Shown here one piece after another: positions 1-13,293 of a stretch of 13,293 nucleotides of DNA. A program made the position numbers and the translations under genes. The notes under the pieces were generated by a model. That model saw only the letters and a list, made by a program, of their open reading frames with translations, did not search any database and was not told the origin of the DNA. Positions within the stretch are counted from its first letter, which is position 1. Each line of letters starts with the position of its first letter. Origin of the DNA: a virus (taxonomy: Duplodnaviria > Heunggongvirae > Uroviricota > Caudoviricetes); the IMG/VR virus record IMGVR_UViG_2563366821_000011; one strand, 5' to 3'.

Positions 1-669
1 ATGTGTGGACGCTTTGCCCAATCCCAAACGCGTGAAGATTACCTCGCGTTTCTCGCGGAAGATATTGAACGCGATATTCCCTACGATCCCGAACCTATTG
101 GCAGATACAACGTCGCGCCGGGAACCAAAGTCCTTCTGCTCAGTGAACGTGATGAACACCTTCATCTGGATCCGGTTTTCTGGGGATATGCTCCCGGATG
201 GTGGGATAAACCGCCGCTGATTAACGCCCGCGTAGAAACTGCCGCAACCAGTCGCATGTTTAAACCGCTCTGGCAACATGGTCGGGTAATATGCTTTGCC
301 GATGGCTGGTTTGAGTGGAAAAAAGAAGGCGACAAAAAACAGCCTTATTTTATCTATCGCGCTGATGGACAACCTGTTTTTATAGCCGCGATAGGTAGCA
401 CACCGTTTGAGCGCGGTGACGAAGCCGAAGGAGTTTTAATTGTCACTGCAGCAGCAGACCAGGGCCTGGTAGATATTCATGACCGCCGCCCGCTGGTACT
501 GTCGCCAGAAACTGCGCGGGAATGGATGCGGCAAGACATTGGTGGTAAAGAAGCCTCAGAAATCGCTACCAGAAGCTGTGTGCCAGCAAACCAGTTCATC
601 TGGCACCCTGTGTCGCGCGCGGTGGGTAATGTTAAAAACCAGGGCGCGGAGTTAATTCAACCTGTTTGA
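1..669 (+). CDS. yedK: SOS-response-associated peptidase (SRAP) / abasic-site processing protein YedK, 222 aa
   Basis: ORF opens with MCGRF (the N-terminal Cys2 nucleophile typical of SRAP proteins) and matches YedK of E. coli as I recall it. ATG at 1, TGA at 667-669. Confidence 0.9.
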   Translation: MCGRFAQSQTREDYLAFLAEDIERDIPYDPEPIGRYNVAPGTKVLLLSERDEHLHLDPVFWGYAPGWWDKPPLINARVETAATSRMFKPLWQHGRVICFADGWFEWKKEGDKKQPYFIYRADGQPVFIAAIGSTPFERGDEAEGVLIVTAAADQGLVDIHDRRPLVLSPETAREWMRQDIGGKEASEIATRSCVPANQFIWHPVSRAVGNVKNQGAELIQPV

Positions 670-864
670 TAAGCCTGGAGATTATCTACACCTGGATGGA
701 CATCATTGTACTATGCCCCGTACATGCCCCATCACATCCTCAACATCAAAGTATTAGAGCCTTGCAAACCATTATGCGTCTCAGTTTGTCTCATCTATCT
801 TACGCAAAAAAAATAGAACTAATATCAAGCGGCGCTATATTGCGTATTAAATAAAACCACCTCA

Positions 865-887
865 GGTGATGCTGCCAACTTACTGAT
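865..887. repeat. IS1 left terminal inverted repeat (about 23 bp)
   Basis: GGTGATGCTGCCAACTTACTGAT, imperfectly complementary to 1610-1632. Confidence 0.85.
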
Positions 888-919
888 TTAGTGTATGATG
901 GTGTTTTTGAGGTGCTCCA

Positions 920-1195
920 GTGGCTTCTGTTTCTATCAGCTGTCCCTCCTGTTCAGCTACTGACGGGGTGGTGCGTAACGGCAAAAGCACCGCCGGACAT
1001 CAGCGCTATCTCTGCTCTCACTGCCGTAAAACATGGCAACTGCAGTTCACTTACACCGCTTCTCAACCCGGTACGCACCAGAAAATCATTGATATGGCCA
1101 TGAATGGCGTTGGATGCCGGGCAACAGCCCGCATTATGGGCGTTGGCCTCAACACGATTTTACGTCACTTAAAAAACTCAGGCCGCAGTCGGTAA
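920..1195 (+). CDS. insA: IS1 InsA (transposition repressor / N-terminal part of the InsAB transposase), 91 aa, GTG start
   Basis: Translation [22 protein letters not shown]... with a CxxC...CxxC zinc finger and an HTH. Stop TAA at 1193-1195. Confidence 0.9.
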
Positions 1196-1617
1196 CCTCG
1201 CGCATACAGCCGGGCAGTGACGTCATCGTCTGCGCGGAAATGGACGAACAGTGGGGCTATGTCGGGGCTAAATCGCGCCAGCGCTGGCTGTTTTACGCGT
1301 ATGACAGGCTCCGGAAGACGGTTGTTGCGCACGTATTCGGTGAACGCACTATGGCGACGCTGGGGCGTCTTATGAGCCTGCTGTCACCCTTTGACGTGGT
1401 GATATGGATGACGGATGGCTGGCCGCTGTATGAATCCCGCCTGAAGGGAAAGCTGCACGTAATCAGCAAGCGATATACGCAGCGAATTGAGCGGCATAAC
1501 CTGAATCTGAGGCAGCACCTGGCACGGCTGGGACGGAAGTCGCTGTCGTTCTCAAAATCGGTGGAGCTGCATGACAAAGTCATCGGGCATTATCTGAACA
1601 TAAAACACTATCAATAA
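1114..1617 (+). CDS. insB: IS1 InsB reading frame (catalytic part of the InsAB transposase, made by -1 frameshift at AAAAAAC 1171-1177)
   Basis: 167-aa ORF in the -1 frame relative to insA that overlaps the insA 3-prime end. The A6C slippery motif sits at 1171-1177. Confidence 0.85.
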
Positions 1618-1632
1618 GTTGGAGTCATTACC
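1610..1632. repeat. IS1 right terminal inverted repeat (about 23 bp)
   Basis: Reverse complement GGTAATGACTCCAACTTATTGAT matches the left IR at most positions. Confidence 0.85.
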
Positions 1633-1663
1633 TCTGATCCCATGGTAATTCAGCTGTTATTTT

Positions 1664-2650
1664 CTATTTAAGAATAAAACGGTATTTACTGTCAGGAGTG
1701 CTTTGCTGATCAAGTAGCAGTGAACGACATGGAGCAGTCAAAACCCGAGCATAACTACCATCAGGGCTTATGTTAATGTAACAAACCTTGCCCTTAACAC
1801 TATAATTTTCGGGGACGGATGCCTTTGCTGATACAGTAAATTTAAGGGTATGCCAGCCCGTTTTTTGCTTGTAGCTTGAAACCGAATGGAAATCATCTGA
1901 GTACTTATTTAACCCTGGAAACATGCTGCGCAGTGCGGGGATGGAATCTTCTATTATTTTATCGTTGGTTTTAATGTTAAAAACGCTGGTTTCAGTAGAA
2001 GCTACTGCTTTGGCATTTCCCCATTTACCAGCGAACACAATCATTCCCACGAAAAATATTGCTACAAGAACTAACACTCCCCCCAACACTACTACATGAG
2101 GCTTCCGGCTTCTGGTTGGTACAGTTGCGACTGATTTTGCACCGCTTTCCGATGGAGGTGATAGAGTTTTACTCTCATCACGAATATTCAGCAGATCATC
2201 AAAATAACCAAACACAGCCTGCAACTGCTCTTTGTCTAGGCCTTTAAGATGGGTTGTACCGAAATGCTTCAGACAGTATCTGTCACGGTCAAGACGATAC
2301 CCAGGGTCAGTAAGCGCCATTATTTTGCTGACCAGAAGATTACAGTCCTTCATATTCTGGATCTGTTGTGCATATCTCTGAAGGATCTCAACCGCACCAT
2401 GATAATCAGCCGCAGTCATTTCATTAACTGTTTTGGTATTAAGTTTCGTGTGGATCGTCATCCATAGCTCGCGCTTACTTTCCCCCAGATCAACCAATTC
2501 ATCCATCAATCTGTGTAAATCGCGTTTTTGCAGCAACGAAATTGGTTGCTGGGCCGAAGGAAGTATGTCAGCAGAATAGTTATGAATGGTAACATCACCG
2601 CTGACAACGTTACCCACATCCCCGTTAACTGTTTGCTTCTCTTTACTCAT
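1664..2650 (-). CDS. Hypothetical single-pass membrane protein, 328 aa, translationally coupled to the prophage repressor
   Basis: 987-bp ORF in an AT-rich region (about 37-40 percent GC by hand count). Its ATG overlaps the repressor stop in an ATGA. One strongly hydrophobic segment (VVVLGGVLVLVAIFFVGMIVFAG, about aa 185-207) is flanked by basic residues. The N-terminal motif GDVGNVVSGDVTI resembles the repressor C-terminal tail. I recognise no known family. Confidence 0.7.
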   Translation of the reverse strand: MSKEKQTVNGDVGNVVSGDVTIHNYSADILPSAQQPISLLQKRDLHRLMDELVDLGESKRELWMTIHTKLNTKTVNEMTAADYHGAVEILQRYAQQIQNMKDCNLLVSKIMALTDPGYRLDRDRYCLKHFGTTHLKGLDKEQLQAVFGYFDDLLNIRDESKTLSPPSESGAKSVATVPTRSRKPHVVVLGGVLVLVAIFFVGMIVFAGKWGNAKAVASTETSVFNIKTNDKIIEDSIPALRSMFPGLNKYSDDFHSVSSYKQKTGWHTLKFTVSAKASVPENYSVKGKVCYINISPDGSYARVLTAPCRSLLLDQQSTPDSKYRFILK

Positions 2651-3108
2651 CTTCTCTTGGTATTTTTGTTCATTATTCCACCTGTTCCTATGGTTACGTT
2701 ACCTTTGATAACATTCCCCAGAACATCTCCATGAATAACCTGTTCCGCCCGTTCTCTGGAGGAGCCAGTAGTCAAGGCCGACAAAACTGAACCTTTGACC
2801 TGTAATGGTGCCTGCCGGTAGTGCTGCAGTAACTCCATTTCATCACGTGATAAAGTTATACCTGATGACTCCCCGGTAAGAATGAACTGTACATTGGCCC
2901 CAATTCTTGCAAAGGCTGCAAGTAACTCACCTCCGGGAACAGCAACCCCTCGTTCATATTTCCCCCACATTTCTCTTGAAACGCCACAAAGGGCTGCTAC
3001 TTCAGCCTGCTTGAGTGATAACCGCGAACGCTCAGCTTTGAACCGCGACGCGCAAAGAGAATCAAAATTCACACAAACCTCATTGACAATGAGAACAATA
3101 GTTCTCAT
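2647..3108 (-). CDS. XRE/Cro-C1-type HTH transcriptional repressor (prophage c-repressor analogue), up to 153 aa
   Basis: HTH motif LSLKQAEVAALCGVSREMWGKYERG. Transcribed divergently from the early operon, as for Mu c. The start is uncertain: ATG at 3108 lies inside the operator palindrome and has no SD (possibly leaderless), while an in-frame GTG at codon 13 is preceded by GAGG. Confidence 0.75.
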   Translation of the reverse strand: MRTIVLIVNEVCVNFDSLCASRFKAERSRLSLKQAEVAALCGVSREMWGKYERGVAVPGGELLAAFARIGANVQFILTGESSGITLSRDEMELLQHYRQAPLQVKGSVLSALTTGSSRERAEQVIHGDVLGNVIKGNVTIGTGGIMNKNTKRR

Positions 3109-3111
3109 AAT
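3083..3111 (+). promoter_or_regulatory. Putative sigma70 early promoter (Pe-like): -35 TTGACA (3083-3088), 17-bp spacer, -10 CATAAT (3106-3111)
   Basis: Consensus -35, ideal 17-bp spacing and a 5/6 -10, lying 48 bp upstream of the ner-position gene whose SD is AAGGAG and ATG is at 3159. Confidence 0.5.
3089..3108. promoter_or_regulatory. Putative operator: perfect palindrome ATGAGAAC-N4-GTTCTCAT within the early promoter spacer
   Basis: 8-bp perfect inverted repeat arms with a 4-bp spacer between the -35 and -10 of the rightward promoter. It overlaps the first codons of the repressor ORF. Confidence 0.5.
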
Positions 3112-3158
3112 CTATCACATATAAAACAAACATCATTGCATCAACAAAGGAGACAACA

Positions 3159-3347
3159 ATGACTTCCGAACAAGTTAAAAATCTCTTCCGTCAGCGTGGT
3201 ATCACGTTTACCCGCTGGGCCGAAGAACACGGCTACAGCCGCAATGAGGTCTATCGTGTTCTCAATGGACAGACCAAAGCTCGTTACGGCAAAGCCCATG
3301 AAATTGCCGTAAAACTGGGATTAAAACCCACGTCAAATGCGGCATAA
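3159..3347 (+). CDS. Small HTH DNA-binding protein in the ner position (Ner/Cro-like early regulator), 62 aa
   Basis: Strong SD AAGGAG 7 nt upstream. HTH-like segment TRWAEEHGYSRNEVYRVLNGQ. First gene of the rightward operon, opposite the repressor. Not obviously similar in sequence to Mu Ner. Confidence 0.65.
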   Translation: MTSEQVKNLFRQRGITFTRWAEEHGYSRNEVYRVLNGQTKARYGKAHEIAVKLGLKPTSNAA

Positions 3348-3399
3348 ATTTTCCACATATGCAACAGGTTATCACATATTGCAAAAATGGAAATGTGAC

Positions 3400-3708
3400 A
3401 TGAGTAAAGTAAATATTTCCAGTTCTGGGACCCGCATCCTACGTGTACTCAAAGCTCTACGCGGTCATGCTCTGAACGGTGTTTCTAACGGTGAACTGGC
3501 ATCAGCCCTGGGGGAGTCCCCGGCGAATATCAATCGAGCACTTAATACCCTTATTGAAGAGGGACTGGCCATGAAATTAGAGAACGGACGTTTCGCACCG
3601 GGAATCCAGTTACTACAGATCGCCATGGCTCACAGTCACGAGATGGCGCGTGCACAGGATCGTATTAACGAAATCAACCAACGAGTTATTTCAGGTAGTC
3701 GTTTGTAA
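3400..3708 (+). CDS. Winged-HTH DNA-binding protein (IclR/MarR-like N-terminal domain only), about 103 aa
   Basis: Motif ILRVLKALRGHALNGVSNGELASALGESPANINRALNTLIEEGLAMK resembles an IclR-type wHTH. Start chosen at ATG 3400 (weak SD); an alternative in-frame ATG at 3337 overlaps the upstream gene. Confidence 0.55.
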   Translation: MSKVNISSSGTRILRVLKALRGHALNGVSNGELASALGESPANINRALNTLIEEGLAMKLENGRFAPGIQLLQIAMAHSHEMARAQDRINEINQRVISGSRL

Positions 3709-3718
3709 GGAGTAATCA

Positions 3719-4633
3719 ATGGGACGCACCAAATCACCCGTTAACACTGAACTGAATGTTGAGGTTCCGCTGTCAGATAACATCAATGTCAATTTGAACG
3801 CTATGACACAGCATCGCATGGAAATTATGCAGCAGTTTGGTGATGGACTGCCTTATGAACGTGATCGCATTGTTCACGAAGCACGTTTTTATATGGCGCA
3901 GAGTGCTGAATCTATGCTGGAAGCGGGTAAGCGGCTGATCATCTTAAAAGAAAATGAGCCACACGGTGATTTTACAAACATTTTAGAAAATGAACTCGGA
4001 CTTGCACCACAAGTTGCTCGCCGCATGATGCAAGCCAGTATGAAGTTTTTGGGAGAAGGTGATGAGCCAACAAAACGCTCAACGTTGAGCGTTTTGGGGA
4101 AAGCCAAACTGTACGACCTGATGGTTCTGGATAATGAAGAACTTGATGAATTGGCCGACGGCGGCACAGTTGCCGGCCTGACGCTTGACGACGTTGATCG
4201 CATGTCAGTACGTGAATTGCGTCAGGCCCTGCGCGAAGCGCGCGAAACCAACGCAGCACAACAGCGCGTACTCGCCGACAAAAATGAAAAAATAGATTCA
4301 CTCTCCACCAGACTGGAGAAGAAATCCCGTATTCAGCCGCCTGAGCCTGATGAGGAGGTTAAGAAGCTGCGGGCGGAAGTAACAGCATTAGCGGTTGAGG
4401 CGGAATCTGCTATCGCCGTCCGACTGTCCAGCGCTTTTGAGACGCTGTGCGCATATTGTGCTGAAAACATGATTGATACCCCCAGAGACTTCATGGCAGG
4501 CCTGGTCTGTCAACTGGAAAGCACAGCGCGTAGCCTGCGCTCCACATTTGACCTGCCGGACGAGCCAACAGGCAATGCAGCGCCTTCATGGCTGACTGAG
4601 CCGACGCCACAGATTAACGGGCTGGAGGCATAA
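3719..4633 (+). CDS. Hypothetical early protein, DUF3102-like N-terminal region plus coiled-coil and acidic C-terminus, 304 aa
   Basis: SD TAAGGAG 6 nt upstream of ATG. Motif HGDFTNILENELGLAPQVARRMMQASMKF resembles what I recall of DUF3102. Stop is 3 nt before the transposase ATG. Confidence 0.6.
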   Translation: MGRTKSPVNTELNVEVPLSDNINVNLNAMTQHRMEIMQQFGDGLPYERDRIVHEARFYMAQSAESMLEAGKRLIILKENEPHGDFTNILENELGLAPQVARRMMQASMKFLGEGDEPTKRSTLSVLGKAKLYDLMVLDNEELDELADGGTVAGLTLDDVDRMSVRELRQALREARETNAAQQRVLADKNEKIDSLSTRLEKKSRIQPPEPDEEVKKLRAEVTALAVEAESAIAVRLSSAFETLCAYCAENMIDTPRDFMAGLVCQLESTARSLRSTFDLPDEPTGNAAPSWLTEPTPQINGLEA

Positions 4634-4636
4634 CCA

Positions 4637-6406
4637 ATGAATGCTGCCCTGACTGAACGACTGGTTTATGTCGCCCGCGCGGCACGTGACGCGGGGCATG
4701 GTAAACGCGGTGCAATATACGACGCTGCCTGTGCTGAACTTGGCATGTCCCGCGCCACTCTGCTGCGCAGGCTGAAGGAGGTCTCTGTGACTGATAAACG
4801 CAAAAAACGCGCCGATGCCGGGCGCAGCGCCCTGACCCGCGACGAAGCCGCGCTGATATCTGCCACACTGCGTGAGGCCACCCGCAAGAACGGTAAGCGT
4901 CTCTATTCCATCGCAGATGCAGTGGAAACCCTACGGGCTAACGGCTTTATCACCGCAGGCAGAACAGATGAAACCACCAGTGAGTTTTTCCCGTTGTCTG
5001 AAGATGCCATCAGCCGTGCTCTGCGTAACTATGGCCTGCACCCGGAACAACTGGATGCCCCTGCACCACATACCGAAGTGGCCAGTCTGCATCCCAATCA
5101 TGTCTGGCAGATTGACGCCTCACTCTGCACGCTTTACTACCTGAGCAATGGACATAAAGGGCTGCAGGTGATGGACAGCGCGAAGTTCTACAAGAACAAG
5201 CCCGCTAACCTTGCCCGTATCGCCAGTGACCGCGTGTGGAGTTACGAGATTACCGACCATGCCAGCGGCTGGATTTACGTTGAGTATGTGACGGGCGCGG
5301 AATCAGGTGAGAACCTGTGTTCTGTGCTTATCAACGCCATGCAGGAGCGTGGCGGCGCAGACGTGCTGCACGGCGTGCCGAAAATACTCTATCTCGACCC
5401 CGGCTCGGCAAACACCGCGGGTATGACGAAAAACATGTGCCGCTCACTGGGCATCGACCTGATAGCGCACAAGCCGCATAACGCCCGCGCCACCGGACAG
5501 GTGGAAAAGGCGCGTGACATTATCGAACGCAAGCTGGAGCCGGGGCTGAAGTTCCGGCCGGTTCACAGTCTGGAAGAACTCAACGCGCTGGCCGCGAAAT
5601 GGCGCAGCCACTTTAACGCCACGGCTGTTCACAGCCGCCACGGTAAAACCCGCACGGATATCTGGCTGAAGATTACTGCTGAGCAGCTGAAAAAAGCGCC
5701 TTCCGTTGAGGTATGTCGTGAACTGGCTGTGGCGGCACCAGAACTCCGCAAAGTCACGCCAAAACTTCGTGTCTCGTTCCGGGGCACTGAATTTGACGTA
5801 TCAACGGTACCGGGCGTACTGGTTGGTGAAAAACTGATGATTACCCGTAACCCATGGCGCAGCGATGTGGCACAGGTGGTTCTGACCGGTGAGGACGGCC
5901 ACGAGACGTTCTTCCTGGTCGAAGAGGTCAGAAAGAACGAGTTTGGCTTTGCTGAAGGCGCGGCGGTATTTGGCGAAAGTTACAAAGCCCTGCCGGAAAC
6001 CTCGGCACAGATGGCGGCAAAAGAAACTGAAGCGCTGGTTACCGGTACAGACAACGCTGCAGATGCAGCCGCCGCACGCAAGGCGAAGGCGCTGCCGTTC
6101 GGCGGGCGGCTTGACCCGTATAAACATATCGACGACACCACACTTCCGGCCTATATGCCGAAGCGTGGTCAGGCCTCTGACGTACGCGGGCCGCGCACTG
6201 AACAACGTCCCATGACTCATGTGGAGGCCGCGAAAGCCCTGCGCGATAAGTTCAGCGCCGACGGCCTTACCTGGACGCCGGAACATTACCGCCAGTTAAC
6301 GGCACAGTACCCGGACGGCGTACCGGAAGCTGCACTGGATGAAGTCATGGCCACGCTGACCACGCCGGCACGCAGCAGTGTTATCAGCATTGTTAACGGC
6401 AACTGA
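4637..6406 (+). CDS. Mu-like DDE transposase (A protein), 589 aa
   Basis: N-terminal HTH, then an rve-type catalytic core with D160 (HVWQIDAS), D254 (LYLDPGS) and E290 (ATGQVEKA; D-35-E spacing). Located immediately upstream of the AAA+ B gene. Confidence 0.9.
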   Translation: MNAALTERLVYVARAARDAGHGKRGAIYDAACAELGMSRATLLRRLKEVSVTDKRKKRADAGRSALTRDEAALISATLREATRKNGKRLYSIADAVETLRANGFITAGRTDETTSEFFPLSEDAISRALRNYGLHPEQLDAPAPHTEVASLHPNHVWQIDASLCTLYYLSNGHKGLQVMDSAKFYKNKPANLARIASDRVWSYEITDHASGWIYVEYVTGAESGENLCSVLINAMQERGGADVLHGVPKILYLDPGSANTAGMTKNMCRSLGIDLIAHKPHNARATGQVEKARDIIERKLEPGLKFRPVHSLEELNALAAKWRSHFNATAVHSRHGKTRTDIWLKITAEQLKKAPSVEVCRELAVAAPELRKVTPKLRVSFRGTEFDVSTVPGVLVGEKLMITRNPWRSDVAQVVLTGEDGHETFFLVEEVRKNEFGFAEGAAVFGESYKALPETSAQMAAKETEALVTGTDNAADAAAARKAKALPFGGRLDPYKHIDDTTLPAYMPKRGQASDVRGPRTEQRPMTHVEAAKALRDKFSADGLTWTPEHYRQLTAQYPDGVPEAALDEVMATLTTPARSSVISIVNGN

Positions 6407-6416
6407 GGAGGAAAAC

Positions 6417-7583
6417 ATGCTGGTACTGAAGCAGCAACTGAAAGAGGCCCGTATCCCACAGGCGGTGGTGGCGAGAGCTGTCGATGTTTCTGAGGCCACG
6501 CTGGCCCAGATTGTGAATCATAACGCGTGGCCCCGCACCAGCCCCGGAGAAGTGCGCCGGCGTCTTGCGTCCTGGCTGGAAAGTCAGGGGATTGATACAA
6601 CGAAGAGTTTTGATGCTGTACAGGGCGCAGCCACGCCCCGTACAGCGGGTACCACAGATAAAACGAGCCTCAGTGAGGAAGAGAATATGTTACTCAAAAA
6701 ACAGGTGTTATTTCCAGCAACCAAAAAAGCGTTTGGTCTTTTCCGTGACCCGTTCGCCGATGAAGCCATGCAGGGTTCTGATGATGTGTTCACCACCCCG
6801 GACATTCGCTACGTGCGTGAGGCGTTGTACCAGACAGCCCGTCATGGTGGGTTTATGGCCGTCATCGGTGAGTCCGGTGCGGGTAAATCCACGCTGCGCC
6901 GCGACCTGACTGAACGTATCAACCGCGAGAATGCGCCGGTAATTGTTATCGAGCCATACATCATCGCTATGGAAGACAACGATGTGAAAGGGAAAACCCT
7001 GAAGGCAGCAGCGATTGCCGAAGCCATTATCAGTACCATCGCACCACTGGAAAGCATCAGACGCAGTCAGGACGCCCGCTTTCGCCAGTTGCATCGCGTC
7101 CTGAAAGACAGCAGCCAGGCGGGGTTCAGCCACGTTTTGGTGATTGAGGAGGCCCACAGTCTGCCCATTCCGACACTGAAACACCTCAAACGCTTTTTTG
7201 AGCTGGAGTCCGGTTTCAAAAAACTGCTGTCCATCGTGCTGATTGGCCAGCCGGAACTGGCGACAAAACTGTCTGAACGCAATATGGAAGTCCGTGAAGT
7301 CGTTCAGCGTTGTGAGGTGGTCGAACTTCTGCCTCTGGACAATAACCTTGAAGAATTTCTGACGTTCAAACTGCAACGGGCCGGTAAACAACTGACGGAC
7401 ATTATGGACGCCAGCGCAGTGGATGCCATACGTGCCCGCCTGAGCAATCCGGGAAGTCATCGTAAAAATATGGTCAGCCTGCTGTATCCGCTGGCCGTCA
7501 GTAACCTGGTGATAGCCGCCATGAATCTGGCCGCTGAAATCGGGGTTCCACAGGTCAACGCTGACGTTGTCAAAGGGGTTTAA
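6417..7583 (+). CDS. Mu B-like AAA+ ATPase (transposition target DNA activator), 388 aa
   Basis: SD GAGGAGG directly upstream. N-terminal HTH (QAVVARAVDVSEATLAQIVN), Walker A GESGAGKST and Walker B VLVIEEAH. An in-frame internal ATG with its own SD lies at 6687. Confidence 0.85.
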   Translation: MLVLKQQLKEARIPQAVVARAVDVSEATLAQIVNHNAWPRTSPGEVRRRLASWLESQGIDTTKSFDAVQGAATPRTAGTTDKTSLSEEENMLLKKQVLFPATKKAFGLFRDPFADEAMQGSDDVFTTPDIRYVREALYQTARHGGFMAVIGESGAGKSTLRRDLTERINRENAPVIVIEPYIIAMEDNDVKGKTLKAAAIAEAIISTIAPLESIRRSQDARFRQLHRVLKDSSQAGFSHVLVIEEAHSLPIPTLKHLKRFFELESGFKKLLSIVLIGQPELATKLSERNMEVREVVQRCEVVELLPLDNNLEEFLTFKLQRAGKQLTDIMDASAVDAIRARLSNPGSHRKNMVSLLYPLAVSNLVIAAMNLAAEIGVPQVNADVVKGV

Positions 7584-7585
7584 TA

Positions 7586-7855
7586 ATGAAATCCACCACA
7601 GGTATCAACCAGCAAATCAGCAAAGTGCAGTCAGCCATTATGGCGCTTAAGGCGACGAACACGGATGTACAAAGCATCACCATCAGGGGTAACAAACCTG
7701 TCATCCGCGTTTCCCGGAGTGCGCATTGCATGCGCATGCTTGAGCAGGGAAAGGCCTGTTATCTGTATACCGGACATGACCACAGGGGATATTTCCGTCA
7801 GGGCGTTTTCGAACTGCACGGCTGTCGCGTCGTGTGGCCGGAATCTTTGTGGTAA
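7586..7855 (+). CDS. Hypothetical early protein, 89 aa
   Basis: ATG 3 nt after the B stop, with SD-like AAGGGG upstream. No recognisable motif. Confidence 0.55.
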   Translation: MKSTTGINQQISKVQSAIMALKATNTDVQSITIRGNKPVIRVSRSAHCMRMLEQGKACYLYTGHDHRGYFRQGVFELHGCRVVWPESLW

Positions 7856-7882
7856 TCAGCACAACAGGAGGAGTCATAAAAT

Positions 7883-8413
7883 ATGGCAAAAAGTACAAAA
7901 GGGGCAAAACGTATCAAAGCCGCAGCAGCACTCTGGGTGCCGGGGACACGCGAAGAGGTCATTGAGGGAATCAGACTGCTTGGTGACGCGCAACGTGAAC
8001 TGGTCAGGGCTGAAACAGAAATGAATGACACCATTGGCGACATCACTGCACGTTATGCCCCGCTCACCGAGAGCCTGAAAAAACGCATGGCCGAACTGCA
8101 GTCCGGTATCCAGACATGGTGTGAGGCGCACCGTGATGAACTGACCGGCAACGGGAAGGTGAAGTTCGCTAACCTCACCACCGGCGAGGTGCAGTGGCGA
8201 AACCGTCCGCCGTCAGTCAGCATTCGCGGGGCGGATAATGTCATTGAACTGCTGAGACGTCTGGGGCTTGAGCGCTTTATTCGTGTAAAGGAGGAAATAA
8301 ATAAAGATGCCATTCTGAATGAAAAAGAGGCCGTGAAAAATATTCCCGGTATTTCCATTAAAAGCGACATTGAGGATTTTTCAATAATTCCTTTTGAGCA
8401 GGATGTGCAGTAA
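7883..8413 (+). CDS. gam: Host-nuclease inhibitor Gam (Mu Gam family, Ku-like DNA-end binding), 176 aa
   Basis: Strong SD AGGAGG. Co-linear with Mu Gam as I recall it: MAKxxKRIKxAAAxxVP..., TEMNDxI, WCEAxRDELT, PPSVSIRGxDxV, GLxRFIRxKxEINKxAIL and C-terminal EDFSIIPFEQ. Confidence 0.9.
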   Translation: MAKSTKGAKRIKAAAALWVPGTREEVIEGIRLLGDAQRELVRAETEMNDTIGDITARYAPLTESLKKRMAELQSGIQTWCEAHRDELTGNGKVKFANLTTGEVQWRNRPPSVSIRGADNVIELLRRLGLERFIRVKEEINKDAILNEKEAVKNIPGISIKSDIEDFSIIPFEQDVQ

Positions 8414-8510
8414 ACACACCACGTTAATTATTTAATAAAAACATTTTCTTTTTTATTCCGGCGTCAGCGCCGTGGGCTTCTGCACGCCGGAAACAGAGGA
8501 GAATTAAATT

Positions 8511-8705
8511 ATGATATTTAAATGTATTCAGTGCGAGAGGGATATAACAGCCCTGCGTTTTCACAGCGCCATCGCCGTGATGTCCGGTAAGTATCACATA
8601 CCTGCAGTACGTGTCACCCTGGTCTGCCCGTACTGCAGCCAGCATTTTTCGGCGGACGTGCCCGTCATGGAATTCTCCCGCCCTGACAGGGAGGACGCGC
8701 AATGA
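8511..8705 (+). CDS. Small zinc-ribbon protein, 64 aa
   Basis: SD GAGGAG. Two CxxC pairs (C5/C8 and C39/C42). Its stop overlaps the next start in an ATGA. Confidence 0.55.
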   Translation: MIFKCIQCERDITALRFHSAIAVMSGKYHIPAVRVTLVCPYCSQHFSADVPVMEFSRPDREDAQ

Positions 8706-8974
8706 TTACCCCACAGGAAGCACGACAGCGCACCCGAACCCTTGTTGAACACTATGTCAACGAGTGTGAATGCCGCGACCTCACCGATGTGAATCACGTC
8801 CTGACGGCGCTAATCAGCATGGCCACACAGGCCATTGTGGCGACCAACGGAAAGGAGGCTGCCCTGCAGGTACTGATGAACACACTCACCCACACGGCAG
8901 AGCATGAGGTGCCGTACCGGATGGAAACCACTGCAGAAGGCGGCCTGCACATCACCGTCAGCCGGAAGCACTGA
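8702..8974 (+). CDS. Hypothetical early protein, 90 aa
   Basis: ATGA overlap with the upstream ORF. Codon usage matches its neighbours. Confidence 0.5.
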   Translation: MITPQEARQRTRTLVEHYVNECECRDLTDVNHVLTALISMATQAIVATNGKEAALQVLMNTLTHTAEHEVPYRMETTAEGGLHITVSRKH

Positions 8975-8983
8975 GGGCGCGGC

Positions 8984-9280
8984 ATGACACGAAACACCGA
9001 ACTCACCCGCACCGCCCTCTACCGTCTGGCCCTGCAGCGTTTCGGGCCGGACGCACAGGCCCTGAAACTGGCAGAAGAGGCCGCTGAACTGGCGGCCAGT
9101 GCCGCCCGCAACCTGAACGGACAGGGCAGCGAAAGTGACCTCGCGGCAGAGCTGGCAGACGTGGAAATCATGACAGAGCAACTGCGCCTTCAGGGGATGG
9201 ACCGGCTGATTGACTTCCACAAACAGAAAAAACTGGAACGTCTGGCTGCACGACTGGGCGTGATTTACACGAACGAGTAA
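8984..9280 (+). CDS. MazG-like nucleoside triphosphate pyrophosphohydrolase domain protein, 98 aa
   Basis: Motifs KLAEEAAELAASAARN and AAELADVEIMTEQL resemble the acidic EExxE and E-x-x-D metal-binding helices of small MazG/HisE-like NTP-PPases. SD GAGGG upstream. Confidence 0.6.
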   Translation: MTRNTELTRTALYRLALQRFGPDAQALKLAEEAAELAASAARNLNGQGSESDLAAELADVEIMTEQLRLQGMDRLIDFHKQKKLERLAARLGVIYTNE

Positions 9281-9294
9281 CCGGGAGGCATTCA

Positions 9295-9510
9295 ATGGCT
9301 GACATACTCAGGGAAATCACCGCATGGACACTGATTCTTACTGGCCTGGCGACATGCCTCAGTGCGGGGGCAGCCCTGGCTGCCCTGCTGATGCACATAA
9401 CAACACAGTGGTTATGGGAAAAGCTTAAAGCAGCATACAGCCTGAAAGAGCTGTCCGACGCTGTCCGGGCATGGAAACGGCAGAAAAATACCGGAGATAC
9501 AGAACAATGA
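9295..9510 (+). CDS. Small membrane protein, 71 aa
   Basis: SD GGGAGG. Hydrophobic helix ITAWTLILTGLATCLSAGAALAALLM. Its stop overlaps the next start in an ATGA. Confidence 0.5.
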   Translation: MADILREITAWTLILTGLATCLSAGAALAALLMHITTQWLWEKLKAAYSLKELSDAVRAWKRQKNTGDTEQ

Positions 9511-10190
9511 CAGACCAGAATAAACACATTGAGAAACTGAAAAAGTTGCTGGCGCTGGCCGCATCCGGCAACCCGCACGAGGCCGCTCTGGCACTGCGCC
9601 GAGCCCGTAAACTGATGGATGTTCACGGCATCACACATTCCGACATTGCTATGAGTGATATTGATGAAACCATCAGTCACTACTGGCCGACAGGCAGTCT
9701 CCGTCCACCGCGCTACATGCTGGGCCTGATGAACATCATCCGCGAGGTATTTGGTGTTAACTCCATCATTCACCCCGGCACGCACCCGTCTGTGGGGTTC
9801 TACGGCAACCGGGAACGTGCGGCACTGGCTGCATACACCTGGGAAGTGCTGGCCCGTCAGCTGAAAAAGGCGCGTCAGCAGTATATCAGTGCACAGAACA
9901 AAAGAATAAAAACCGCCACCCGCACCAGCCGTGGAGACCAGTTTGCCGAAGGCTGGGTGCTGGCCGTTATCAGTGAAATACAGTCCTTTGCCCTGACCGA
10001 TGATGAGCGTGAACTGATGCAGCAGTGGCTGGAACATAAATACCCGCAGACGCAAACCACCAGGGCGCGTAAACCGGGAAGAAGCCGCAATGGCGACGCC
10101 TCGCGCTATGCGGGGTTTCGTGAAGGGCAGAACGTCAGACTGCACCGCCCGGTCAGTGGGCAGGAACAACAGAAACTGGAGGCCAGATGA
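9507..10190 (+). CDS. Hypothetical early protein with DUF2786-like N-terminal motif, 227 aa
   Basis: N-terminus IEKLKKLLALAASGNPHEAALALRRARKLMDVHGI matches the conserved DUF2786 motif as I recall it. ATGA overlap with the upstream gene, SD GGAGA. Confidence 0.6.
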   Translation: MTDQNKHIEKLKKLLALAASGNPHEAALALRRARKLMDVHGITHSDIAMSDIDETISHYWPTGSLRPPRYMLGLMNIIREVFGVNSIIHPGTHPSVGFYGNRERAALAAYTWEVLARQLKKARQQYISAQNKRIKTATRTSRGDQFAEGWVLAVISEIQSFALTDDERELMQQWLEHKYPQTQTTRARKPGRSRNGDASRYAGFREGQNVRLHRPVSGQEQQKLEAR

Positions 10191-10417
10191 TTACGCTATC
10201 AGGTAACAGCCGGAAATTAAAAGCCTGCCGAATATCTGCCAGATACCTTTTTGCCCGCGCCTTTTTTAAGAACGTCAGGCCGGGGATCACAATTGGTGTT
10301 ATTGCCGGACGCGAACAGGTTGAAAAATACATGTCAGGTGCATGGTGGAATAACGACCCTGTCATTGCTGCCCGTAATATTCATATCAGTTGGGGGGATA
10401 TTCAGAATGACGGCTGA
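10187..10417 (+). CDS. Hypothetical small protein, 76 aa
   Basis: ATGA overlap with the upstream gene; basic N-terminus. Weakly supported. Confidence 0.4.
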   Translation: MITLSGNSRKLKACRISARYLFARAFFKNVRPGITIGVIAGREQVEKYMSGAWWNNDPVIAARNIHISWGDIQNDG

Positions 10418-10622
10418 ATCTGTTGTATGTGCCCTGTTCTGGTATTGTTTTGTCGGTTGGTGTACTGCTGAACTGCACCGCCGTTCAGGGTTTTATTCAC
10501 GTTACAGTGGTGCCGGCTACTGGATTAGCTGGTCGGTGATGTTCCTGTGCTGGCCTGTGGCGCTTCCTTTATATGTCGATTATATCGGTGGCGCAGGTAA
10601 AAGGAGCAACGATGATGACTAA
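10407..10622 (+). CDS. Small membrane protein, 71 aa
   Basis: SD GGGGGGA 8 nt upstream of ATG. Two hydrophobic, Trp/Cys-rich segments (VVCALFWYCFVGWC and WISWSVMFLCWPVALPLYV). Confidence 0.45.
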   Translation: MTAESVVCALFWYCFVGWCTAELHRRSGFYSRYSGAGYWISWSVMFLCWPVALPLYVDYIGGAGKRSNDDD

Positions 10623-11064
10623 ACAACGTCTTATCCAGCTCATTCATATTGCCCGTAATGAACTGGGTATGGATGAAGACACCTACCGCCAGATGTTACA
10701 GGGGCTGACCGGTAAAGCCTCAACCAAAGGAATGGATACCACACAACTAAACTGCGTGCTGGAATCCATGAAAAGGAAAGGCTTTCGCGTTAAGCCTGCC
10801 AGAAAAGCCAGCTCCGGTTTACCGCTGGATAACCATCCGCAGTCCAGGAAAATCCGTGCGCTATGGCTTGAAATGGCTGCTGCCGGCATTGTTCGTGACC
10901 GTTCAGAAAATGCATTAGCGCGGTGGATCAAGCGGGAAACGGGCATCAGCGCCCTGCGCTGGCTCAATACTGAACAGGCAAGCAGTGTTATTGAGAAACT
11001 GAAGAAGTGGCAGCGCAGAGCTGCGGGAGTAAAACATGAGCGACCTGAATCAGTTTCGAAGTAA
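10612..11064 (+). CDS. gemA: GemA-like protein (Mu gp16 family, DUF1018), 150 aa
   Basis: SD AAGGAG 5 nt upstream. N-terminal motif KQRLIQLIHIARNELGMDEDTYRQMLQGLTGKAS is typical of Mu gp16/GemA-like proteins. Lies immediately upstream of mor, as in Mu. Confidence 0.7.
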   Translation: MMTKQRLIQLIHIARNELGMDEDTYRQMLQGLTGKASTKGMDTTQLNCVLESMKRKGFRVKPARKASSGLPLDNHPQSRKIRALWLEMAAAGIVRDRSENALARWIKRETGISALRWLNTEQASSVIEKLKKWQRRAAGVKHERPESVSK

Positions 11065-11434
11065 AGGGCCGGAACTCCTGGTGGAACTGGCACAGCATAC
11101 CTCTGAGACCGTTCGCGAGATTATTGATATTGAGCCCGCAATTGCCGACCAGATTGGTCAGGCCGTCGCGAACCGAATGATGCAGGTCTGGGGCGGGCAA
11201 AACGTTTATTTCCCGATGGGCATGGTATGGAAGGTCAGTCAGCGCGACCGGGAAATCTTCAGGGAGTTTAACGGACGCAACCACCACGAACTGGCCCGCA
11301 ATTTTGGTGTTTCGCTTCAGTGGGTCTACAGCGTGGTTAAGCGGGTCAGAAAAGAAGAACTGGATCGGATGCAGGGCAGGTTGTTTGATGAAGATCTGCC
11401 AGAGGAGACGAAAGACGTTAACAAATCCAGATAA
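11036..11434 (+). CDS. mor: Mor-family transcriptional activator (middle operon regulator), 132 aa
   Basis: Motifs GGQNVYFP and FNGRNHHELARNFGVSLQWVYSVVKRVRK match the Mor/C family HTH region. Last gene of the early operon. Confidence 0.85.
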   Translation: MSDLNQFRSKGPELLVELAQHTSETVREIIDIEPAIADQIGQAVANRMMQVWGGQNVYFPMGMVWKVSQRDREIFREFNGRNHHELARNFGVSLQWVYSVVKRVRKEELDRMQGRLFDEDLPEETKDVNKSR

Positions 11435-11479
11435 TTCCTGCTTGTTAAAGTCCTTTCAAAAATCTCCTTATTGTATAAG

Positions 11480-11511
11480 AGCACGGTAGACCCTTTACCG
11501 TGCTTTTTTTA
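11480..11511 (+). terminator. Rho-independent terminator-like hairpin (stem AGCACGGTA / TACCGTGCT, 7-nt loop, T-run)
   Basis: Perfect 9-bp inverted repeat immediately followed by 6-7 T, 46 bp after the mor stop. It could also serve as a dyad protein-binding site. Confidence 0.6.
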
Positions 11512-11548
11512 TGCTCTCTATGTAATATTCAGGATGCAGGGAGAAAAT

Positions 11549-12181
11549 ATGTTTGACGTTTCGTTATTAAATCTGCCATGGGCAACACTGGTGACCCTGA
11601 CCAGTGGCTATATTGGGTATTTTATTGCGAATGTGGGGCTGAAGGATCACCACAAACCCATTGAGGTGACTTTTTCTTCGCTGATTTTTGGCCTGACAGC
11701 AATGATGGCTTACCAGGCTGTTATGTGGGCAGGTCTGAATGCCTGGCTGGCAACCCCCCCAGCACTTCTGTGTGCCGTTACATGCGGTGCGTGGTGGCGC
11801 AGGTACGGTCGCAAATGGATGTACAGATTACTGTGGAATAATGATATTTCATGGTCTGACAATACCAGCTCAGCATGGCAGGCAATGTTTGATCAAACAG
11901 GCTTCAGCGTCACCGAGGTCAGAGTGATTCTTCGCGATGGTTCCGGTATGATGTCACGGCTGCCAGGGAACTTTGAAGAGTGGCCTAACGGTCCGTTTAC
12001 CCTGGGAAATAAAGGCGATATGGTTCTTTACGTCACGCACAGCAGCCCTTCAGGAAGTAACGAATGGGAAGAGTATAAAGGCGTGGTTGATAAGTACTGG
12101 GGAGCTCTGGCAACCTATATTCCAGCAGATCAGATTGCCAGAGTGGAGATCAGGCGCGTTCGTGCAACGAACGATGAATGA
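11549..12181 (+). CDS. Hypothetical membrane protein (three N-terminal TM helices plus a soluble C-terminal domain of about 120 aa), 210 aa
   Basis: SD GGGAGA 7 nt upstream of ATG. Three hydrophobic segments in the first 85 aa, followed by RRYGRK. Occupies the position where Mu carries C. No family recognised. Confidence 0.65.
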   Translation: MFDVSLLNLPWATLVTLTSGYIGYFIANVGLKDHHKPIEVTFSSLIFGLTAMMAYQAVMWAGLNAWLATPPALLCAVTCGAWWRRYGRKWMYRLLWNNDISWSDNTSSAWQAMFDQTGFSVTEVRVILRDGSGMMSRLPGNFEEWPNGPFTLGNKGDMVLYVTHSSPSGSNEWEEYKGVVDKYWGALATYIPADQIARVEIRRVRATNDE

Positions 12182-12343
12182 TGTTTATTTTTTCCCTGGA
12201 GCAGGAGCTGCCGGCATAGTGGTTTTATTGGCAGAGGAAGACGATTCTCCTTTTCTACCGGAATCGCGCTCGAACGTCACAATGTGCTTGCTTTTGGGCT
12301 TTTCTGAGTAATCCAGGCTGTCATGCTTATTGTTTTGAGTAGT

Positions 12344-12421
12344 CATTGGAATCATCCTTTTTGTTACGGGTCATGTTTCAGCAAACTCGATTCTAAGTTG
12401 CCAGGAAGGATGATTTCAATG
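12344..12421. repeat. Inverted repeat, 16 bp arms (CATTGGAATCATCCTT / AAGGATGATTTCAATG, 15/16 match) separated by 46 bp
   Basis: Direct reading of the sequence: arms at 12344-12359 and 12406-12421. Confidence 0.5.
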
Positions 12422-12499
12422 CCCGACTTATCTATCGTATAGCGGAAAAGAATTTCAGTTCTGTTCACCAGAACCCATGTTAACCCACTCCAATTCGTT

Positions 12500-12532
12500 A
12501 TTTATCTCACGGATCCCCCTTCATTTATCTCA
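12500..12532. repeat. Direct repeat ATTTATCTCA x2 (12500-12509 and 12523-12532), 23-bp register, next to the dgcQ junction
   Basis: Exact 10-bp direct repeat, each followed by a GATC-containing segment, lying just inside the foreign DNA. Confidence 0.4.
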
Positions 12533-13293
12533 TGTCTGATCAACCAGTAGTTATTACTGTCTACCGGAACACTGACGGTAACCTGCGGTTCAGTATTGCT
12601 GGCGTGTTCCGGTTGCGAAGTGAACCAGCGTACCGCGCGGTGACGATTTTCTCGTTGTGAATGGCCGATAAACCAGGGTTGGGTGACATAGCCGTAATAA
12701 CGCGTTGGTACATTGCGCGTAAACAAGGTCGGCAGCGTCGAAACGTAAAATCCAGCACGCGAGACATACACCGCCTGTTCAACCATCGACGAGGAGTTGT
12801 GCGCCAGTCGCAGCAAGTAACCAACTTCCAGTGCAGCGGTAATTTCATTGTCGAGGCTTTCATTTTCGCGAGACAGGAGATTCCCCTCGCTGACTAATGC
12901 ATCCGATACGCCATTGACTGGCAGGGTGCGCCGTCGGTTGAGTTCGATTTGCCAGGTGTGCTCGTCGCGATGCTGTTCGAACTCGGTTACGGCATTACGC
13001 AGAGAGGTGAAATCCAGTGGCGCCACGAGAGCTTCGCGCATGCCATTACGCAAAAAGATCAGTTTGTCGACGTTATACTGCAAATGCTTATCGAGCGCGT
13101 TGGCTACGTTTTCCAGATGATTACGCTGGCTGGAGATATAGGCATCTTCCAGCACCACCACTTCACGCCAGGTGAGCAAGGTGGAAAAAAGCAATACCAC
13201 GATAAAGCAGAGATTAACGATATGACCAGGCCCCAGGCGGCGTGCGAGTTTTTTCAACCAGCTCTGGTTTTCCATTTTTGTCTCGTGCTGCAC
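12502..13293 (-). pseudogene. dgcQ: 5-prime fragment of a DgcQ/YedQ-like membrane-anchored diguanylate cyclase gene (N-terminal TM and periplasmic sensor domain only; GGDEF domain absent)
   Basis: The ORF starts at the window edge (GTG) and reads [15 protein letters not shown]..., with a signal-anchor TM ([18 protein letters not shown]) and a periplasmic-type domain. It ends after 263 aa with a short unrelated tail ([13 protein letters not shown]) and has no GGDEF motif. Identity is from memory of E. coli YedQ (about 564 aa). Confidence 0.55.

Follow-up and report, generated by a model that had tools for sequence, protein, structure and literature searches.

Early half of a BcepMu-like Escherichia coli prophage, very probably truncated by an IS1 adjacent deletion

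The window, that is, the whole stretch of 13,293 nt analysed here (IMG/VR virus record IMGVR_UViG_2563366821_000011), holds the early half of a BcepMu-like prophage whose late arm was very probably lost through an IS1 adjacent deletion after the phage had inserted into dgcQ. Phage DNA occupies positions 1633–12542 (+ strand), which corresponds to 10,910 bp (29%) of a 37,491-bp BcepMu-like transposable prophage and comprises the immunity operon, the early operon, the right-end morons, and the right terminus. A preliminary description had placed the remnant at 1664–12181, a span that has to be corrected; it had also missed an IS1 element (865–1632) and the host DNA at the two ends (yedK, 1–864; dgcQ, 12543–13293). 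The left flank (1–864, +) consists of yedK (1–669) and its downstream spacer and is 100% identical to the yedK regions of B2 strains, for example, Nissle 1917. The right flank (12544–13293, −) is the 5′ portion of dgcQ, into which the prophage is inserted, as annotated in the identical region of strain MSB1_4I.

The IS1 element (768 bp, ggtgatgctgcc...ggagtcattacc; 865–1632, +) is 99–99.7% identical to the IS1 copies in P1, SfIV, and others, and the same element occupies the same yedK site in MSB1_4I. Positions 1–864 of the window correspond base for base to MSB1_4I 3045740–3046603, and the identity extends over the whole of yedK and IS1 (1–1632), including the junction between them. Downstream of IS1 (1633–13293), only two differences in 11,661 bp were found, both of them synonymous and both in the transposase gene. 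Between the bases matching 1632 and 1633, MSB1_4I contains an intervening block of 30,258 bp (3047372–3077629), in which late genes take up 26.6 kb and host DNA, with rcsA and DsrA among its genes, 3.7 kb. The presence of DsrA in this block was confirmed by Rfam; the same search of the window itself found no known RNA family. In the window, the right end of IS1 is joined directly to the intergenic spacer that follows the p328 gene (1632/1633), and the 33 nt across this junction read GGAGTCATTACCTCTGATCCCATGGTAATTCAG. The sequences immediately flanking IS1, accacctca and tctgatccc, were read directly and do not form a 9-bp duplication. Furthermore, yedK (+) and dgcQ (−) have the same orientation to each other as in Nissle 1917, which is the native one, and this marks the arrangement as the product of a deletion and not of an inversion. 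The latter was rejected, as it would place an inverted IS1 and fliR′ beside 1633 instead of yedK and IS1 in their original orientation.

IS1 and its left flank are thus unchanged, the right flank has been replaced by distal DNA in the same orientation, 30,258 bp are gone, and a 9-bp duplication is absent, a combination characteristic of IS1 adjacent deletions. Such deletions have classically been described beside IS1 in the gal region. As in those cases, IS1 is retained with one flank unchanged, and the other flank has given way to DNA from further along that side (here 30 kb away), in its original orientation and lacking a target duplication; no notable difference was found. The anatomy of the window, its match to the sister strain, and the absence of the block are observed directly; the deletion itself would have proceeded either by intramolecular transposition of IS1 or by recombination with a second IS1 copy. 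One-step adjacent deletion, on the one hand, and insertion of a second IS1 followed by homologous recombination, on the other, give the same product.

The join runs through a repeated element (IS1, 768 bp, with at least 40 matching pieces per sister genome), and an assembler mis-join at this place would therefore look identical. In this case, IS1 next to yedK and a second IS1 inserted at 1632/1633 of a complete prophage would have had their wrong flanks joined, and the late region would in truth be intact; a late region contiguous beyond the window through an assembly artefact is also what the preliminary description had named as the finding that would overturn its reading. Consistent with a chimera, the junction is unique among all collections searched: it occurs in 0 of 5,426 complete E. 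coli genomes and is absent from the GTDB species representatives and JGI metagenomes searched. However, a chimera needs both an IS1 insertion at this site and an assembly error, whereas the deletion needs a single event, and an IS1 at this phage position was likewise found in none of the 5,426 complete genomes. In addition, contigs reading through a 768-bp repeat into unique sequence on both sides are more typical of long-read assemblies, which would seldom be mis-joined here. An assembly chimera is, thus, considered unlikely.

The phage to which the retained DNA belongs is, by its sequence, BcepMu-like and of the Bcepmuvirus type, not Mu-ordered. Its DDE (rve) transposase (4637–6406, +; Pfam rve) is homologous to BcepMu TnpA (68.2% identity over 98% of the length with BcepMu, NC_005882; 69% with phiE255; tblastn) and shares 56% identity with that of B3, while Mu and D108 were absent among the 69 phage records matched. 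Kinship of the BcepMu transposase with Tn552 has been described (PMC2771037). In full-length relatives, the genome consists of two arms that diverge from the repressor. The rightward one is the early arm, with transposase, B-like ATPase, Gam, GemA, and Mor in this order up to the right terminus; the leftward one, the late arm, encodes holin, SLT endolysin, terminase, portal, head, P2-like tail, and an invertible tail fibre. The late genes lie to the left of the repressor and on the opposite strand in all full-length relatives examined (MSB1_4I, IAI39, ST131 strain 2822, and the Serratia and Yersinia loci), and the window itself represents the early arm only. The published layout of BcepMu, with two divergent clusters and lysogeny control at their interface, agrees with this arrangement (PMC2771037).

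The right terminus of the phage (12498–12542, +) ends in ...CTGATCA-3′ and contains two GAGATAAAT repeats, 11–22 and 34–45 nt from the end, which are putative transposase sites; at the left end of the MSB1_4I prophage, mirror-image sites are found with spacing equal to that of the right-end repeats. Immediately beyond follows ACCAGT (12543–12548), the right copy of a 6-bp target-site duplication in dgcQ. That the terminus is at 12542 is fixed by an identical phage copy at a different site in ST131, where the phage is inserted in a lambdoid prophage gene with GCTACG at both junctions. The phage thus has TG...CA ends (TGATGCG...CTGATCA) and generates short duplications at unrelated sites; the window keeps the right end only. 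The preliminary description, assuming the geometry of Mu, had expected 25–30 kb of late genes after Mor. This was not borne out, as the late genes lie on the repressor side and the Mor end is the natural terminus. The late genes of Mu come after mor and C; their absence beyond Mor in the window would also suit a Mu-ordered prophage that has lost them, or a small satellite or mini-Mu-type element that by nature never had any. Position 12542, however, is a natural terminus with terminal CA, paired repeats, and a 6-bp duplication, and is the end of the identical copy elsewhere as well; furthermore, the left terminus is missing, with IS1 in its stead, and the segment matches part of a 37.5-kb phage almost perfectly. 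A Mu-ordered prophage is, consequently, extremely improbable, and a satellite or mini-element was rejected for the absent left terminus and for being part of the 37.5-kb phage.

With Mu, the phage shares the lifestyle of replicative transposition, the Gam, GemA, and Mor domain families, and the terminal CA. It differs in that homology to MuA was not detected (transposase search, 69 phage records), in its Xre-type instead of c-type repressor, in the inverted orientation of the early relative to the late arm, and in its 6-bp target duplication, that of Mu being 5 bp. Neither a MuA transposase nor the Muvirus gene order (c-ner-A-B...mor-C-lys-head-tail) is present. BcepMu, phiE255, and the E. coli relative PhiKM (PQ738613), in contrast, have in common with it the AAA+ "ExeA-like" helper and the Gam, GemA, and Mor modules. 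Across the BcepMu group, lysogeny control likewise lies between two divergent clusters and is followed by genes for holin/SLT lysis, the head, and a P2-like tail; the genomes end in TG...CA and are inserted at unrelated sites. What differs is that here the early arm and one end alone survive. PhiKM, which is classed as Bcepmuvirus, is 95.5% identical in DNA over 3107–11394 and departs from the phage in the window in the immunity module (repressor and p328) and the right-end morons. The E. coli phage further differs from BcepMu by a recombinase adjoining the invertible tail-fibre segment, BcepMu having been reported to lack a tail-fibre inversion system (PMC2771037).

The retained segment (1633–12542) contains the repressor operon and 18 early ORFs. 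The early operon begins with two small DNA-binding proteins, a 62-aa HTH protein (3159–3347, +) and a 102-aa winged HTH protein (3400–3708, +), followed by a 304-aa DUF3102 protein (3719–4633, +), all assigned by Pfam and PHROG. Downstream of the transposase lies the B-like AAA+ transposition helper of the "ExeA family" (6417–7583, +; AAA_22, 3.6e-20; PHROG 296, DNA transposition protein). The middle of the operon (7586–10622, +) encodes p89, Gam (7883–8413), p64, p90, p98, p71, a DUF2786/DUF7168 protein (9507–10190), p76, and p71b. It is followed by GemA (10615–11064, +; PF06252, 6.5e-41) and Mor (11036–11434, +; PF08765, 3.6e-43), and a hairpin resembling an intrinsic terminator (14-bp stem and T run; 11477–11507, +) closes the operon. 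By Pfam and PHROG assignment, eight small ORFs stand beside the domain-assigned early genes. Each ORF that the preliminary description had named is present; its "ner-like" gene encodes an Xre-type HTH protein, and its "A" is not MuA but a BcepMu/Tn552-type rve transposase. Its statement that all early reading frames are uninterrupted was confirmed: alignment of the 18 early and immunity ORFs to the full-length prophage of IAI39 gave no gaps or stops, nor did alignment to phage PhiKM over the shared region. The ATGA stop/start overlaps it had reported are likewise real (n = 4; 2647–2650 on the − strand, 8702, 9507, and 10187), and inspection of the gene content verified that the window contains no lysis, head, or tail gene.

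At the right end, a variable cargo block (11549–12346) encodes p210, a membrane protein of 210 aa (11549–12181, +), distant homologues of which carry DUF6338, and p53 (12185–12346, −). Matches to Pfam and PADLOC were absent for both. The last rightward ORF starts at ATG 11549; a start at TTG 11471 would take in the terminator at 11477–11507. The block is missing from IAI39-type relatives, the match to which stops near 11394.

The immunity operon consists of an Xre-type repressor of 153 aa (2647–3108, −; HTH_31/HTH_3), 99.8% identical to the IAI39 copy, and p328 (1664–2650, −; PHROG 10002), a single-pass membrane protein co-transcribed with the repressor via an ATGA overlap. A candidate early promoter (TTGACA-17-CATAAT; 3083–3111, +), proposed from its match to the consensus at 11 of 12 positions, lies in the divergent control region. 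No match to p328 was present in the local Pfam copy or PADLOC; the precomputed assignment PF27202 (Flk_N, weak) points to a weakly Flk_N-like cytoplasmic domain. The AlphaFold2 model of p328 (pLDDT 76) contains two confident domains, for which a fold match was not found in the PDB (Foldseek, best E = 0.1). The order of repressor and p328 is conserved in Serratia and Yersinia, and contigs with an identical p328 had the full-length layout in all 31 cases read (24 longest of 11,828 index blocks). The C-terminus of the repressor and the N-terminus of p328 share a near-invariant motif of 20 residues, (Q)-x-[VI]-x-GDV-x-GNV-[VI]-x-G-[DN]-VTI, which is present in E. coli, Serratia, and Yersinia. Repressor and p328, the two genes expressed in the lysogen, might form a functional pair, p328 being a membrane-tethered partner or sensor through which repressor activity is controlled, or an exclusion factor, and the remnant a working immunity/exclusion module; this idea is put forward with little confidence.

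The preliminary description had offered recent truncation or selection for host-beneficial functions as reasons for the intact early genes. The former was borne out by the two synonymous differences in 11,661 bp from the intact sister prophage; with so few differences, intact ORFs need no selection, and they are presumably intact because the deletion is very recent and left no time for decay. Selection, on the other hand, did not hold up, since recency suffices and the truncated form occurs in 0 of 5,426 complete E. coli genomes. An island domesticated for Gam end protection, repressor immunity, or exclusion by p328 or p210 would fit the retention of the lysogenic operon with its repressor and conserved membrane protein, the two retained morons, which could act in exclusion, and the frequency of related phages (∼11% of complete E. 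coli genomes), against which immunity could be useful. This is, nevertheless, very unlikely. Apart from the near-identity to the intact prophage and the lack of any second truncated genome, the early region was found in 644 and the late region in 643 of the 5,426 genomes, a co-occurrence of almost one to one, and the low dN/dS values of the early genes are a measure of the circulating phage family and not of the remnant. Neither recurrent truncated or early-only forms nor purifying selection after truncation was observed.

Rac, e14, and CP4-57 are likewise immobile fragments keeping regulatory and some accessory genes. Those are old, widely shared, and partly decayed, whereas the remnant in the window is private to one genome and, unlike them, ∼99.98% identical to a live prophage.

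The most probable history of the locus is as follows. A 37.5-kb BcepMu-type phage with terminal TG...CA would have transposed into dgcQ, generating the 6-bp target duplication, in a lineage that already carried IS1 ∼200 bp downstream of yedK. This IS1 would earlier have deleted the block from a porin gene to fliR. In the genome of the window, its right end would then have caused another adjacent deletion, this one of 30,258 bp. With it would have gone the fliR stub, rcsA, dsrB, DsrA, yodD, and yedP, the 3′ portion of dgcQ, and the entire left side of the prophage (26.6 kb), up to the spacer that immediately follows the repressor operon. What is left is the repressor operon, an early operon under repression, the two morons of the right end, and a single transposon end. 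Two nested deletions in this lineage thus seem attributable to one and the same IS1 copy. The view of a truncated, one-ended, presumably immobile remnant agrees with this, as the left terminus is gone and IS1 is in its place; with one end and without late genes, the remnant would be incapable of transposition or virion production. Some E. coli genomes carry the phage at up to three places, and another full copy elsewhere in the same genome is possible.

The element is an ordinary, freshly made remnant of a common E. coli transposable prophage, neither unusual nor selected, and its significance beyond correct annotation is small. Where an IS element has only recently cut a prophage, intact ORFs in the remaining fragment are no sure sign of selection. 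"Mu-like" prophages of E. coli are often of the BcepMu type, and missing late genes should be sought on the repressor side, not after Mor. The remnant probably still confers repressor immunity against homoimmune phages, so that the strain would stay protected from a family found in ∼11% of complete E. coli genomes. Consequences at the strain level rest in the host genes lost (rcsA, DsrA, dsrB, yodD, and yedP), which add to the earlier loss of fliE-R and the disruption of dgcQ and point to altered motility, capsule regulation, RpoS control, and cellulose signalling.

A megablast search of complete E. coli genomes (5,426) and phage records resolved four blocks in the window: host yedK (1-669) with its downstream spacer (1-864, plus strand), which shares 100% identity with B2 strains (e.g., Nissle 1917); a complete IS1 of 768 bp (865-1632); prophage DNA (1633-12542); and the 5′ part of dgcQ (12543-13293, minus strand), which identical genomes annotate as truncated. 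Neither tRNA genes nor Rfam families were found in the window. The dgcQ frame broken by the phage extends into the phage right end by 13 codons up to a stop (ORF 12502-13293; overlap 12502-12543), so a truncated N-terminal DgcQ fragment of about 263 aa could be produced. No 9-bp duplication surrounded IS1 (flanks accacctca and tctgatccc).

In the sister strain MSB1_4I (NZ_LR898874), which carries the intact prophage, window 1-1632 (yedK and IS1) recurs base for base at 3045740-3047371, and window 1633-13293 recurs at 3077630-3089290 with two differences (4933 and 6058), both synonymous (L99 and A474 of the transposase). Between these segments, MSB1_4I has an extra 30,258 bp, which are missing from the window: a fliR stub; rcsA, dsrB, DsrA (identified by Rfam), yodD, and yedP; the 3′ part of dgcQ; and 26,581 bp of prophage with the invertase, the invertible tail-fibre segment, baseplate, tail, head, portal, terminase, and lysis genes, and two cargo genes. 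Of a full prophage of 37,491 bp, the window retains 10,910 bp (29%), with the right end only. The left side of IS1 is unmoved, DNA that once lay at a distance now adjoins its right side without target duplication, and yedK (plus) and dgcQ (minus) keep their native relative orientation, which is evidence for an IS1 adjacent deletion that would have taken out the 30,258 bp, including the late half of the prophage. The product would be the same after recombination with a second IS1 copy in direct orientation; an inversion was rejected because the junction expected from it differs from that found. Searches for the IS1-phage junction were negative in all 5,426 complete E. coli genomes, in GTDB representatives, and in JGI metagenomes. 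An assembly chimera joining two IS1 copies would be indistinguishable, the join passing through a repeat abundant in the lineage, but is considered improbable because both a further IS1 insertion and an error of assembly would be needed. The remnant is most probably a very recent product generated by IS1.

The right end of the window's prophage (12542) is the natural phage end: ST131 strain 2822 carries, within a lambdoid prophage gene, a copy that matches 1633-12542 with 100% identity, and the match ends exactly at 12542. The phage termini read 5′-TGATGCGCC...CTGATCA-3′, and each end carries two GMGATAAAT repeats (11-22 and 34-45 nt inward of the terminus) that may serve as binding sites for the transposase. 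Duplications of 6 bp border the insertions, ACCAGT at dgcQ and GCTACG at the ST131 site (window 12543-12548; 31044-31049 of L003, the MSB1_4I locus; 29911-29916 of locus L004; and, as reverse complement, in L005, that of ST131 strain 2822). Target duplications of Mu, in contrast, are typically 5 bp; 6 bp fits a Tn552-type transposase.

The transposase was 68% identical to that of the Burkholderia phage BcepMu (over 98% of its length), 69% to that of phiE255, and 56% to that of Pseudomonas phage B3, and neither Mu nor D108 was among the 69 phage records it matched. DNA of the E. coli phage PhiKM (PQ738613), classified as Bcepmuvirus, was 95.5% identical across 3107-11394. BcepMu, a phage with terminal CA and a transposase of the Tn552/IS1604 type, has a published layout in which the bottom strand codes for regulators and transposase, the top strand codes for lysis, head, and P2-like tail proteins, and the control of lysogeny lies where the two meet (PMC2771037; PMC2628397). 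This layout was present in every full-length relative examined (MSB1_4I, IAI39, ST131 strain 2822, and Serratia and Yersinia loci); going left from the repressor operon, the minus strand carries one or two cargo genes and then holin, SLT endolysin, spanin-like genes, terminase, portal, head, and tail. In the phage of the window, late genes should therefore lie left of position 1633 rather than after Mor. A serine-recombinase gene adjoins the tail-fibre genes, whose arrangement differs between MSB1_4I (L003 31128-34689) and ST131 strain 2822 (L005 4726-8909). While BcepMu reportedly lacks a tail-fibre inversion system (PMC2771037), recombinase and rearranged fibre genes suggest an invertible host-range switch like the Mu G-segment in the E. 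coli phage. The remnant itself is ordinary, its source is a common BcepMu-like E. coli prophage, and both phage family and kind of event are already known.

Pfam and PHROG assigned an Xre-type repressor (2647-3108, minus strand), a 62-aa HTH protein (3159-3347), a winged-HTH protein (3400-3708), DUF3102 (3719-4633), an rve-type transposase (4637-6406), an AAA_22 "ExeA-family" helper (6417-7583), Gam (7883-8413), DUF2786/DUF7168 (9507-10190), GemA (10615-11064), and Mor (11036-11434); eight scattered small ORFs had no domain. One RefSeq genome labels the 98-aa early ORF (8984-9280) as nucleoside triphosphate pyrophosphohydrolase (MazG-like) family; a local Pfam scan gave no match for it. The divergent control region, still in place, includes a promoter-like sequence close to consensus (3083-3111). 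The start of the last ORF was placed at 11549, a TTG at 11471 being discarded because it would take in a strong terminator-like hairpin (11477-11507). A variable cargo slot after Mor (11395-12542) holds a terminator, downstream of it the membrane protein gene p210 (11549-12181, plus strand; DUF6338 in distant relatives), and, encoded on the other strand, the small p53 (12185-12346) with its own promoter-like site (12419-12390). IAI39-type relatives lack this cargo and end about 160 bp past Mor.

All ORFs listed in the preliminary description were present and open, four ATGA stop/start overlaps were verified, and the window indeed carries no late genes. The earlier view of an intact, early-only remnant therefore holds as an observation, with the boundaries corrected from 1664-12181 to 1633-12542. 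All 18 ORFs aligned without gaps or stops with the full-length IAI39 prophage, and likewise with PhiKM where the region is common. With only two synonymous differences in 11.7 kb, decay had no time to set in; selection need not be invoked for the intact ORFs, and the proposed selection for host-beneficial early genes was not borne out. Among complete E. coli genomes, the early region (644 genomes, 713 places) and a 7.4-kb head-tail segment (643 genomes, 714 places) were nearly equal in number; early-only remnants are thus not a recurrent state. The low dN/dS of the larger genes (0 to 0.25, window versus IAI39 or PhiKM) reflects the circulating phage family, not the remnant.

The repressor gene is ATGA-coupled to, and predicted to be co-transcribed with, that of the membrane protein p328 (1664-2650, minus strand), which bears only a weak Flk_N label. 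Its structural model predicts two confident domains around one transmembrane helix, without a fold match in the PDB. A 20-residue motif is common to the repressor C-terminus (2647-2715, RAEQVIHGDVLGNVIKGNVTIG) and the p328 N-terminus (2585-2650, KEKQTVNGDVGNVVSGDVTI), both on the minus strand (11/21 identities, E = 3e-4; pairwise BLASTP). In Serratia and Yersinia prophages, hardly any residue changes in either copy, whereas the DNA-binding HTH half of the repressor diverges (prophage loci L007 3582-4102 and L008 3519-4102), a hint that repressor and p328 interact or have a partner in common.

As the repressor operon is retained, the remnant probably confers immunity against homoimmune phages, whose family occurs in about 11% of the complete E. 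coli genomes. Since only one end and none of the late genes remain, neither transposition nor particle formation is expected of it; Mor would be left without its presumed late-operon target, and derepression might be harmful.

In Nissle 1917, the yedK-to-rcsA interval contains a porin gene, ybcM, ybcL, emrE, and fliE-R. The yedK-IS1-fliR′ arrangement of MSB1_4I (L003 26604-27458), which lacks the porin gene, ybcM, ybcL, emrE, and fliE-Q, therefore seems to be the product of an earlier deletion by the same IS1 copy. Of two such nested deletions, the first would have left IS1 abutting the fliR stub, and the second, in the window, would have removed a further 30.3 kb. Nissle 1917 has a deletion of its own (L009 15243-17239), with truncated fliR fused to truncated dgcQ and rcsA through yedP gone, which argues for independent losses of the fliR-dgcQ interval in different B2 strains. 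The strain carrying the window should be non-flagellate and lack rcsA, dsrB, DsrA, yodD, and yedP.
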